A stretch of 64,000 nt of DNA, taken from Malacoraja senta (Eukaryota). Below the pieces are notes generated by a model that did not search any database, was not told where the DNA came from, and saw only the letters and a list, made by a program, of their open reading frames with translations. This document shows, piece by piece, positions 5,201 through 8,200 of the stretch. The stretch covers positions 6,386,001 through 6,450,000 of the forward strand of contig CM075989.1 in NCBI GenBank assembly GCA_038087875.1. Direction: 5' to 3'. The position numbers and the translations under genes were made by a program. Position 1 is the stretch's first letter; every line of letters begins with the position of its first letter.

Positions 5201-8200
5201 CTCCAAATCTGTCCTGTCCATGTTCCTGTCTAACTGTTTCTTAAAACGTTGGGATAGTCCCAGCCTCAACTACCTCCTCTGGCAGCTTGTTCCATACACC
5301 CACCAACCTTTGTGTGAAAACGTTACACCTCAGATTCCTATGAAATCTTTTCCCTGTCACCTTAAACCTATGTCATCGTTCATTGAAATGTTGTAAAGGT
5401 GTAGGGTGGACGCTAAGCTGACATTTCCACTGGCTATAAAGCTTAAGCTCAACATACGATTTTGGCCACTTAAATACCATCATCTAAAGCGTGGAGAATT
5501 TTAGGAACTCTTTATTCTGAAGGACAATGGCGAGTGAGTATTTTTGTAGATTGATGGCTGATATTTAGATATGGTCAGGAGATATGTGATTAACCCTTAT
5601 TAATGTTTTAACCCAAACCGGCCCTACGACCATGTTTTAAACCGGACTGGACAATGGGCCATTATGGACCCCACCCTTCCTGAGGTCATCTGTTGCCGGC
5701 CCTGTTTTTTTCTGGCCTTCACTATCTTCCAGTCTGAAGAAGAGTTGCGACCCGAAACCTCACCTATTCCTTCCCTCCTGAGATGCTGCCTGACCCGCTG
5801 AGTTAATCCAGCATTGTGTGTCTATCTTCAGTTTAAACCAGCATCTGCAGTTCCTTCCATAATCACAGATATGGGATTAATGTTGGGAAATGGCCATGAG
5901 GTAAAAGATGCCCGATCCATCGCAGGTACTGACCTCTCCAACATGGATGGGATCTACAGGAGGCTCTGCCTCAAGAAGAGCAGCCAATATCAAAGAACGC
6001 CATTGCCCTGGCCTTGCTCCCATTTTACTCTTACCATCGGGGAATACGGTACGAGTCTGAAAACCATGACTACCTAGTCCCACCTATTCTCACTCACAAG
6101 CAAGCCGGCTGTGCAAATCATTTTGGGGGGCACGGTGGCACGAGTTGCTGCCTCACAGCCCGAGACCCGGGTTCGATCCTGACTATGGGCGTTGTCTGTA
6201 TGGAGTTTGTGTGTTCTCCCCCTGACCTACGTGGGTTTTCCACAGAGCTCTTCTTCCCAACAACCATCAGGCTCTTAAACACTTTACAATGTTCACCTCA
6301 ACTATGTATTGCTATGGGGCCACTTTGGTTACCCGATGGGCTATGTGCATCTTTGCACTGGTATTGTGGTTGAATAAGACACACAAAGACTTAGAATAAT
6401 TGTAGATACTGGTAACTGCAGATGGTGGTATACACAACGAGACACAAAGCACTGGAGTGGCTCAGCGGGTCAGGCAGCATCTCTGGAGAACATGGATAGG
6501 GGACATTTCAGGTTGGCACGGTGGCCCAGCTCTAGAGCTGCTGCTTCACAGCCCCATGGATCCCTGTTCGATCCTGGCCTTGGGCGTTGTGTGTGTGGTT
6601 TGCACATTCTTCCTGTGTCCACATGTGTTTCTTCCGGGTGTTCCGCATCCCTCCCACATCCCAAAGACATGCCGGCTTACATGCTAACTGGCCTCTGTAA
6701 ATTGCCACTAGTGTGTAGGGAGTGTATGAGAAAATGGGATAGGAAGTGTGTGTCGGAACACTAATGTGTAAGGGACTCGGTGGCCCGAAGGGCCTGTTTC
6801 CACGCTCTATCCCTAAACGTCTGTCTGCAGAAGGTACCTGACCCAAAGGGGTGGGAGATTGCAACCTTCACGCGGCCCACCCTGTTTCGACGAATGCAAT
6901 CGACCCGGCGTGCACAAAGAGAAGATCAAACAGAACAAGTTGTCTTCAGACTTTAGGCTGTGCACGCCATACGCAAGAAGAAGAACTCAAAACATCACCT
7001 ATTTATGTTCTGCAGAGAATCTGCCTGATCTGCTGAGTTACTCCAGCACGTTGTGTCTCTTTTTGTACACCAGTATCTGCAGTTCCTTGTTTCACCATTC
7101 AGTTGCCTGGAAAGTGAGTCTTGAAGGTACCGAGAAGACATTCACTAACTGCTGGCCTTGCCTAGCCTTGCCTTGCCTTGCCCGCAGGGTGCACAAATCC
7201 CCCAACAGCAATGCCCCTCTACATCTCTAGGGCAGAGGGAGCTGCTGACCTACTTATGCTGGATTCTGACGCAAGAAAAAGATTCTACATCCCGGCACTA
7301 ACAAACACAAGGAAGGATCGCAAGGAAGTTCGGCATATCCCCGACAACTCTCACTGACTTCTACAGATGTGCCGAAGGAAGCATTTTATCAGGATGCATC
7401 ACAGCATGGTTTGGGAACAGCTCCATCCAAGACCGCAAGAAATTGCAGCGAATTGTGGACGCAGCCCAGACCACCACACAAACCAACCTCCCTTCCAAAT
7501 ACTGCATTTATACCTCACGCTGCCTCGGCAAGGCCAGCAGCATAATCAAGGAAGAGTCGCACCCTGTCCACTCCCTCTTCAACCCTCTCCCATCAGGCAA
7601 GAGGTACAGAAGTGTGAAAACGCACACCTCCAGATACAGGTAGACAAAAATGCTGGTGAAACTCAGTTGGTGAGGCAGCATCTATGGAGAGAAGGAATAG
7701 GCGACGTTTCGGGTCTTGACTCGAGACCCGAAACGTCGCCTATTCCTTCTCTCCATAGATGCTGCCTCACCCACTGAGCTCCTATAGCATTTTTGTCTCT
7801 CTTCGATTTTTCCAGCATCAGCAGTTCTTTCTTAAACACTTCCAGATACAGGGACAGTTTCTTCCCAGCTGTTATCAGGCAACTGAACCATCCCACTCTT
7901 AGAGAGCAGTCCTGAACTACTATCTACCTCATTGGAGACCCTCAGACTATCTTTGATCAGACTTTACTGGCTTTACCTTGCATTAAACGGTACTCCCTTA
8001 ACATGTATCCGTACATTGTGAATCACCCGGTTGTAATCATGTATTATCTTTCTGCCGACTTCGTTCTTCTTCTCGGTTTCCTGGTCCTCCAAAAATATTC
8101 CAAATGGAATTTAAACTGGAGGTGGTTAGCACGCAACAAAAGCTTTTCACTGTACCTGGTTACATAGACAATAGGTGCAGGATTAGGCCATTTGGCCCTT

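Follow-up and report, generated by a model that had tools for sequence, protein, structure and literature searches.

Internally deleted copies of a Vingi-type LINE in Malacoraja senta carry a predicted minimal HDV-like ribozyme, and sister families suggest a probable Vingi origin of the CPEB3 ribozyme

Among the retroelements that begin with an HDV-like ribozyme, L1Tc with NARTc and R2 with its SIDEs are, as far as the accessible parts of the sources go, the precedents for ribozyme-headed LINEs accompanied by short derivatives. HDV-like ribozymes are further described as having spread by retrotransposition in the accessible text of PMC8256844. The available part of PMC5786205 lists six ribozyme-bearing clades; Vingi is not among them, and CPEB3 is not mentioned in that part. 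According to the available text of PMC13708176, Vingi elements are compact, with a single ORF of about 3 kb that holds APE plus RT and no RNase H, and their UTRs serve as gene-insertion templates. For the HDV-like fold itself, the constraints given in the accessible part of PMC6326823 are a G1-Y pair, the L3 U..CG motif, P1.1 and a J4/2 of the form C-R-R-A. Forms without P4 cleave in vitro, and nearly 99% of those reported in the available portion of PMC10879173 belong to Caudoviricetes phages, the eukaryotes screened there being human, mouse and protists. In the present study, we followed up a sequence-only reading of a 64,000-nucleotide stretch of Malacoraja senta DNA (the window), which had pointed out a 137-bp element with an HDV-like 5' end. 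The element is very probably an internally deleted copy of a Vingi-type LINE, of which the HDV-like head likely freed the RNA at G1 and the LINE enzymes likely recopied that RNA.

The element occupies positions 6848-6984 on the plus strand of the window. It is flanked by ACCCAAA (6841..6847), lying within a common host repeat, and ACTCAAA (6985..6991), which form a TSD identical at 6 of 7 positions. When the flanks were fused minus one TSD, 50 of the 91 BLAST matches crossed the junction; therefore, 6848-6984 is a true insertion interrupting this host repeat, and the coordinates of the sequence-only reading, with the insertion starting at G1, were exact. The surrounding host gene is a CHD gene on the minus strand (1983..37996), which we take to be CHD2 rather than CHD1. 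It was recognized by domain matches in its exon-bearing frames, with Helicase_C at 1983-2312, SNF2 at 13221-13538 and 17520-18038, and Chromo at 37745-37996. Since these minus-strand exons flank the element on both sides, the element is intronic, and it is antisense to the CHD gene as had been proposed.

The first 54 nt of the element (6848..6901, plus strand) are predicted to form a minimal HDV-like ribozyme with a predicted cut 5' of G6848, on the basis of the coordinates, a structural descriptor and covariation. P1 pairs GGGGTGG with CCACCCT (6848-54/6877-83), P2 pairs GATTGCA with TGCAATC (6857-63/6895-901), and P3 pairs ACC with GGC with one A-C mismatch (6864-66/6874-76), closing the L3 loop TTCACGC (6867-73). 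P1.1 is the single pair C6869-G6884, a vestigial P4 with TTCGA follows (6885-90), and J4/2 is CGAA (6891-94) with the predicted catalytic C6891. Apart from P1.1, these helices and junctions, together with the GT after P1, had been named in the sequence-only reading, and each was found at its claimed place. The window copy differs from the majority-type copy L004 at 8 of 137 positions, two of which are copy-specific T>C changes in this region (6873..6876), one in L3 (6873) and one in P3 (6876), where the A-U pair is lost. With nested folding only, the P3 pair probability was about 0.01 in the window copy, compared with 0.20-0.27 in a majority-type copy. Because of the P3 mismatch and this low pair probability, the ribozyme of the window copy is, in this folding model, probably impaired, and the copy itself is probably a decayed, inert insertion.

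The structural HDV descriptor was used in a strict form and in a relaxed form allowing one P3 mismatch. On 2 Mb of first-order Markov background, there were 0 strict matches and 1 match with one P3 mismatch. On the plus strand of the window, the sole match starts at 6848 and requires one P3 mismatch; one minus-strand match in the window is a mirror reading of the stems of the same element. The comparison with HDV and CPEB3 models that had been suggested earlier gave a negative result, as the Rfam search of the window copy and L004 returned chance matches only, with neither HDV nor CPEB3 among them, and both copies stayed below the 35-bit cut-off of RF00622. The majority sequence of the short elements (family A) carries every one of the published HDV-like constraints, namely G1-T, L3 TTCACGT, P1.1 and CGAA, and its P1, P2, P3 and P1.1 follow the HDV order of a nested double pseudoknot. 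It may be that a one-pair P1.1 without P4 slows cleavage.

Searching the 1.94-Gb genome for family A brought up 1,543 candidates; 40 of these were scored and 30 retrieved. An exact 35-nt core pattern had 3,020 genomic matches, with 0 for its control. The family A majority has P3 ACC/GGT, the very consensus that the sequence-only reading had predicted, and L3 TTCACGT. The strict descriptor was passed by 24 of the 30 copies, and in each of these 24 G1 coincides with the boundary of the element. Of the same 30 best copies, 23 have a TSD of 7-18 bp, compared with 1.3% in the mismatched-pair control. In a second sample, selected by the tail only (30 of 76 loci analysed), a TSD was present in 18 of 30 (control 3.4%). 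The 5' ends of this sample lay at nt 1-4 in 21 loci, at nt 5-15 in 2 and later in 7, two of the last being LINE 3' ends. In sequencing runs of four other organisms, 10,993-14,082 family A contig pieces were found per run, and in all four runs there were loose ends at G1 with unrelated upstream sequence (307-442 contigs per run; these are contigs and not RNA starts). The expected piling up of 5' ends at G1 was thus observed in both kinds of data. A promoter initiating at G1 would likewise stack 5' ends there. G1 itself is absent in many copies.

The changes that distinguish family A subfamilies are compatible with the fold: A32G leaves a U-G wobble, and G45T affects the variable base of J4/2, which is CTAA in the LINE and in the oldest family A subfamily. 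The about 99% likeness of the best copies does not support a family that is still young, as those 30 had been chosen as best matches; tail-selected copies average 92% alike, and LINE copies about 85-92%.

The tail pattern search reached a LINE, as the loci L042 and L049 run upstream into the C-terminus of a reverse transcriptase. With a pattern targeting a different sequence upstream of the element body, variant short copies only were obtained (5 of 5). Upstream walking led to a full-length, degraded LINE of 2.8 kb (L096:2666-5466), in which nt 1-79 and the last ~45 nt match the short element, so that a LINE sharing both ends, as had been anticipated, exists in the same genome and is of Vingi architecture. 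By comparison with this LINE, 6848..6926 is the part from the LINE 5' end (nt 1-79) and 6940..6984 the part from the LINE 3' end, with a last-codon remnant, the 3' UTR and the (AAG)n tail. Between them, at the deletion junction, lies a 13-nt filler (6927..6939) that resembles, and may have arisen from, duplicated adjacent sequence. The perfect 10-bp hairpin (6907-16/6959-68) and the AAG tail (6975-84) of the sequence-only reading are both present on the plus strand, and we can add that the two arms of the stem derive from the LINE 5' UTR and 3' UTR. They pair at 9 of 10 positions in the LINE and 10 of 10 in the window copy, and the stem may have a role of its own.

The short element thus keeps both LINE ends, has no ORF and shows TSDs in most of its best copies, as is expected of a bipartite non-autonomous LINE. 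The earlier description as a SINE-like element is to be corrected in that it is a bipartite LINE derivative and not a SINE with an independent head: a tRNA, 5S or 7SL head, which defines a SINE in the strict sense, was not found in the copies searched, and the head is LINE-derived. A shrinkage of P4 within the short element was considered and rejected, as the LINE carries the same short P4. The reduction of P4 to TTCGA is real, but it is not peculiar to the short element, the LINE head being already P4-less. The strict descriptor passes 1 of 7 family A LINE heads.

In the partner LINE, RVT_1 was found together with weak, below-cut-off APE and zf-RVT matches, and RNase H had no match. No intact family A ORF was seen, the longest frame being 442 aa. 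We found 510 relatives of this LINE, and most of the 120 listed are APE+RT proteins of ~1000 aa on contigs of ~3.2 kb; PF00075 was absent from all of these 120. The closest intact relative among the matches listed is P0001 (1019 aa, 71% identical), and a search of viral contigs with P0001 gave no relatives. The 2.8-kb degraded copy, with RVT_1, weak APE and no RNase H match, agrees with the Vingi architecture, and the Vingi label is based on this architecture and on the likeness of sister-family 5' ends to Repbase Vingi ends, the tree references being unlabelled. In that RT tree (25 rows, without labelled Vingi, Ingi or RTE references, with one long outgroup and unsettled deep forks), family A falls together with relatives from arthropods and metagenomes (97/95).

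Searches with the APE N-terminus and with RF00622 identified ten sister families (B-K) in addition to family A. Families B, C, D, E, F and H are single-ORF elements of ~3.1 kb with the head at their start, the open frames of D and H being 986 aa and 940 aa long; family G has one head just upstream of an APE match, and in families I and J the heads are joined, inverted, to bodies of the same family. In family I, TSDs were read by eye in three copies, and one copy is a collinear head-plus-tail derivative. Family K, with 136-177 bp, is another short element that lacks P4, and no partner LINE for it was found among the LINE and metagenome loci examined. The distance from P1.1 to the catalytic C is 6 nt in families A and K, which are P4-less in this sense, and 16-44 nt in the other nine.

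When the majority sequences of the 11 families are compared, the bases pair in 173 of 186 cells; both partners have changed in 14 of the 17 pairs, among them P1.1, which goes from C-G to U-A. After shuffling of the 3' strands among families (2,000 shuffles), there were 123 +/- 8 pairing cells, with a maximum of 150. The parse was fitted to the structure, with free lengths of J1/2 and P4 and the first J4/2 base C by construction, so that the counts lean toward it; L106, L111, L117, L132 and L222 had been dropped beforehand for a wrong or clipped anchor. With this reservation, the covariation in P1 and P2 that the ribozyme reading depends on is present across the sister families. In addition, all 11 families retain the L3 U..CG motif and P1.1, despite their unrelated P4s. 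The strict descriptor had 0 matches in families D, F, I, J and K; position 1 is T and not G in 4 of the 11 majorities, and G1 is missing in all 6 copies of family K. Wherever the descriptor matches a family copy, the match begins at the independently defined boundary, with the one exception of an H copy (offset 30 instead of 32). Of the 16 metagenomic relatives whose sequence reaches 150 nt or more upstream of the ORF, 3 show the fold (two of them identical) and 13 do not; it was present in 0 of 122 control segments.

With the RF00622 model, 39 of the 51 listed matches in this genome exceed the 35-bit cut-off, the best reaching 64.2 bits, and matches were found in 0 of 14 control genomes. The top matches are family H heads, whose copies are 93-98% alike, and the cut-off is exceeded by sister families G-K, although these CPEB3-like families had been picked using the CPEB3 model itself. 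By hand count, family I has the same base as the CPEB3 consensus of Rfam in 57 of 67 positions, or in 59 when two tied positions are read as G1 and the CpG, and both of its P4 arms are identical to those of CPEB3 (14 of 14). As P4 varies freely among the other families, this match argues for descent rather than convergence. The metagenomic relative L295 scores 55.6 bits with RF00622 and matches at 45 of 48 positions outside P4 (hand count). Family A is distant from these CPEB3-like sister families in the 25-row tree. The likeness to CPEB3 that was noticed in L3, GT and CGAA therefore stands as far as shared motifs go; it is generic for family A, and the close match is found in the sister families.

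The 2018 supplement of PMC5786205, in its accessible part, prints the Repbase 5' ends of Vingi-2_Gav, Vingi-4_Crp and Vingi-1_BF and a segment of Vingi-2_SPur, and these Vingi ends from gharial, crocodile, amphioxus and sea urchin carry the same head when compared by eye. In the alligator SINE2-1_AMi printed there, the P2, P3 and P4 arms of CPEB3 were also recognized by eye, with an altered L3. The 2021 ancestral reconstruction of the CPEB3 ribozyme stopped at mammals for lack of an outgroup, according to the accessible text of PMC8233481. Structure searches have recovered CPEB3-related sequences from non-mammals including lancelet, sea urchin and lamprey (PMC8256844, available portion), and part of these sequences may be Vingi heads that go by a different name. 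The sister-family heads are near-copies of the CPEB3 ribozyme, which suggests from sequence comparison that this ribozyme likely began as part of a jumping gene. We consider it probable that HDV-like heads are general to Vingi LINEs and their short derivatives, and that the CPEB3 ribozyme of mammals arose by domestication of a Vingi 5' end. In the literature accessible to our search, no link between CPEB3 and Vingi or between Vingi and a ribozyme was found; the novelty is provisional, as key primary papers lie outside that search.

For the spread of the short element, we propose the following steps. A copy within a transcribed region would be read through, presumably by Pol II, and the head, as a predicted minimal HDV-like ribozyme, would cut 5' of G1, by analogy with L1Tc/NARTc and R2. 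The LINE protein would bind the shared 3' end of the RNA, which would be inserted in trans by target-primed reverse transcription. More tentatively, the LINE protein might also hold on to the head at the target site, which would explain the frequent 5' inversions. Among 15 distinct head-bearing LINE insertions (duplicates merged by hand), the head is inverted relative to the body in 11, and 9 of these 11 extend to nt 11 or nearer G1. This pattern resembles twin priming on RNA molecules that all begin at one 5' position.

The same inversions can be taken in favour of a different role, in which the head is mainly an internal promoter and/or a protein-binding signal and the HDV fold is kept as a scaffold, cleavage being slow or dispensable in family A. 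In the accessible text of PMC4035085, the Pr77 head of L1Tc is both promoter and ribozyme, the R2 protein is reported to bind its own 5' RNA in the available part of its source, and G1 is absent from many copies, including all 6 copies of family K. We regard this reading as unlikely, as the L3 U..CG motif and P1.1 are retained over 11 families with unrelated P4s, and the Vingi head inside the tRNA-headed SINE2-1_AMi (PMC5786205, accessible part) has an L3 without its first U and last U, a loss that would be expected if cutting must be off inside a tRNA-headed SINE. By analogy with Pr77, a promoter or protein-binding role could also coexist with the ribozyme.

Still less probable is an ordinary SINE transcribed by Pol III, with a head that only looks like a ribozyme. 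The element holds no T4 run, and loose A- and B-box-like words can be seen by eye at nt 5-15 and 37-46. Against this reading, ARAGORN found no tRNA in 5 of 5 loci, on which ground a Pol III/tRNA head was rejected, and the Rfam search of the window copy and L004 gave no 5S or 7SL match; moreover, the head comes from the 5' end of the LINE itself, and its fold covaries across families. A chance fold within a repeat, for which the lack of an Rfam match for the window copy and L004 might speak, is scarcely credible and has already been largely refuted by the 0 strict descriptor matches in 2 Mb of background and by the start of the fold at the independently defined boundary in all matching copies but one H copy.

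These findings indicate that the internally deleted Vingi-type LINE described here adds Vingi to the LINE clades with predicted 5' HDV-like ribozymes. A vertebrate genome is found here to contain thousands of copies of a 54-nt P4-less HDV-like fold, a form described almost only from phages. If the proposed origin is true, Vingi heads are the missing non-mammalian outgroup and the origin for the memory-linked human CPEB3 ribozyme, and by supplying this outgroup they make its origin directly testable. Since Vingi UTRs are used as gene-insertion templates, a self-cleaving head would also bear on template design. Short ribozyme-headed LINE derivatives were already known from NARTc and the R2 SIDEs; according to our literature search, and with provisional novelty, three points are new, namely the Vingi clade, a eukaryotic form that lacks P4, and the likely descent of the CPEB3 ribozyme from Vingi.

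Among the known systems, NARTc, RIME and SIDER of the L1Tc/ingi clade in trypanosomatids are likewise short LINE derivatives that join a 5' HDV-like ribozyme (L1TcRz in Pr77) to a 3' end (PMC4035085, accessible part). Unlike NARTc, the present element has a vertebrate host and a partner of Vingi architecture without an RNase H match, and its ribozyme has 54 nt without P4, compared with 77 nt with P4 in NARTc and L1Tc. In the R2 SIDEs, too, internal deletion has left a LINE with a ribozyme at its 5' end and a recognition sequence at its 3' end (Eickbush and Eickbush 2012, PMC3414825, accessible part), but R2 is rDNA site-specific and has a restriction-like endonuclease, whereas family A is dispersed and of APE type. 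The non-autonomous Vingi-1_EE derivatives, SINE2-1_ACar and SINE2-1_AMi are likewise bipartite products of internal deletion in Vingi (PMC5786205, available portion). The HDV fold without P4 is shared with drz-Mtgn-1 and the theta ribozymes; in contrast to the minimal phage ribozymes, it heads here a vertebrate retroelement of several thousand copies, and family K lacks P4 as well. The mammalian CPEB3 ribozyme (RF00622) shares with family A the L3 TTCACGT, a P1.1 of one pair with T after it, and CGAA. CPEB3 itself exists as one conserved copy in an intron, has a P4 of 7 bp and is reported absent outside mammals in the accessible text of PMC8233481, whereas family A has different P1, P2 and P3 sequences, no P4 and no RF00622 match.

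Among the LINE partners of the 137-bp element (family A), 5' inversion was found in 11 of 15 head-bearing insertions (L106, L108, L114, L115, L117, L121, L130, L135, L141, L145 and L147), most of the inversions extending to the 5' end, and such inversions are present too in the Vingi-like families G, H, I and J. At four loci (L153, L162, L208 and L106), the 5' junction carries a short tandem duplication of the head's initial stretch, suggesting from the sequence that template jumps may occur at the RNA's 5' end. In addition, three copies of the 137-bp element (L031, L051 and L054) have an internal deletion that removed part of the predicted ribozyme or the middle; nonetheless, they begin at G1, the first nucleotide of the element, and have target-site duplications (TSDs).

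Other families carry variants of the predicted HDV-like head. A family D copy (L236:310-3267) has an open frame of 986 aa, and its head shows a P1.1 helix of two pairs and a bulged P2. In the family E head the C-G pair of P1.1 is replaced by U-A (L176, L185 and L196). Family K is a second short element of 136-177 bp with TSDs and an AAG tail (L218, L220 and L224-L227); its predicted HDV-like head is without P4, and G1 is absent from all six copies. No partner LINE for family K was found among the LINE and metagenome loci compared.

Beyond this genome, two metagenomic Vingi-like elements have structured 5' ends (L245, about 1-100; L246, about 420-500), which did not fit the HDV descriptor and matched no Rfam model, and which are possibly further ribozyme variants. 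An intact protein of 1019 aa from a 3,344-nt ENA contig (P0001) shares 71% identity with the family A protein and is far nearer to it than all other matches. This closeness bears on the question of horizontal transfer.

Within the window, a 301-aa open frame lies at 62702-63604 (minus strand), which we take to resemble the C-terminal portion of an L1-type ORF2. The common host repeat stands in tandem at 10479-10977 (minus strand), in about seven units of ~66 bp.

Judged by sequence, family H (L198-L204, L207, L208, L214 and L217; full copies L233-L235 and L243) is a young Vingi-like LINE. Its copies are mutually 93-98% alike, L233 has an open frame of 940 aa, and scores of its head against the Rfam CPEB3 model (RF00622, cut-off 35 bits) reach 64.2 bits. 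Family I heads lie at about position 1500 of L209, L211, L213, L219 and L222; four are inverted and adjoin bodies of their own family, and L211 is a derivative made of head and tail. These heads are the nearest to the mammalian CPEB3 ribozyme, and the likeness extends to the arms of P4.
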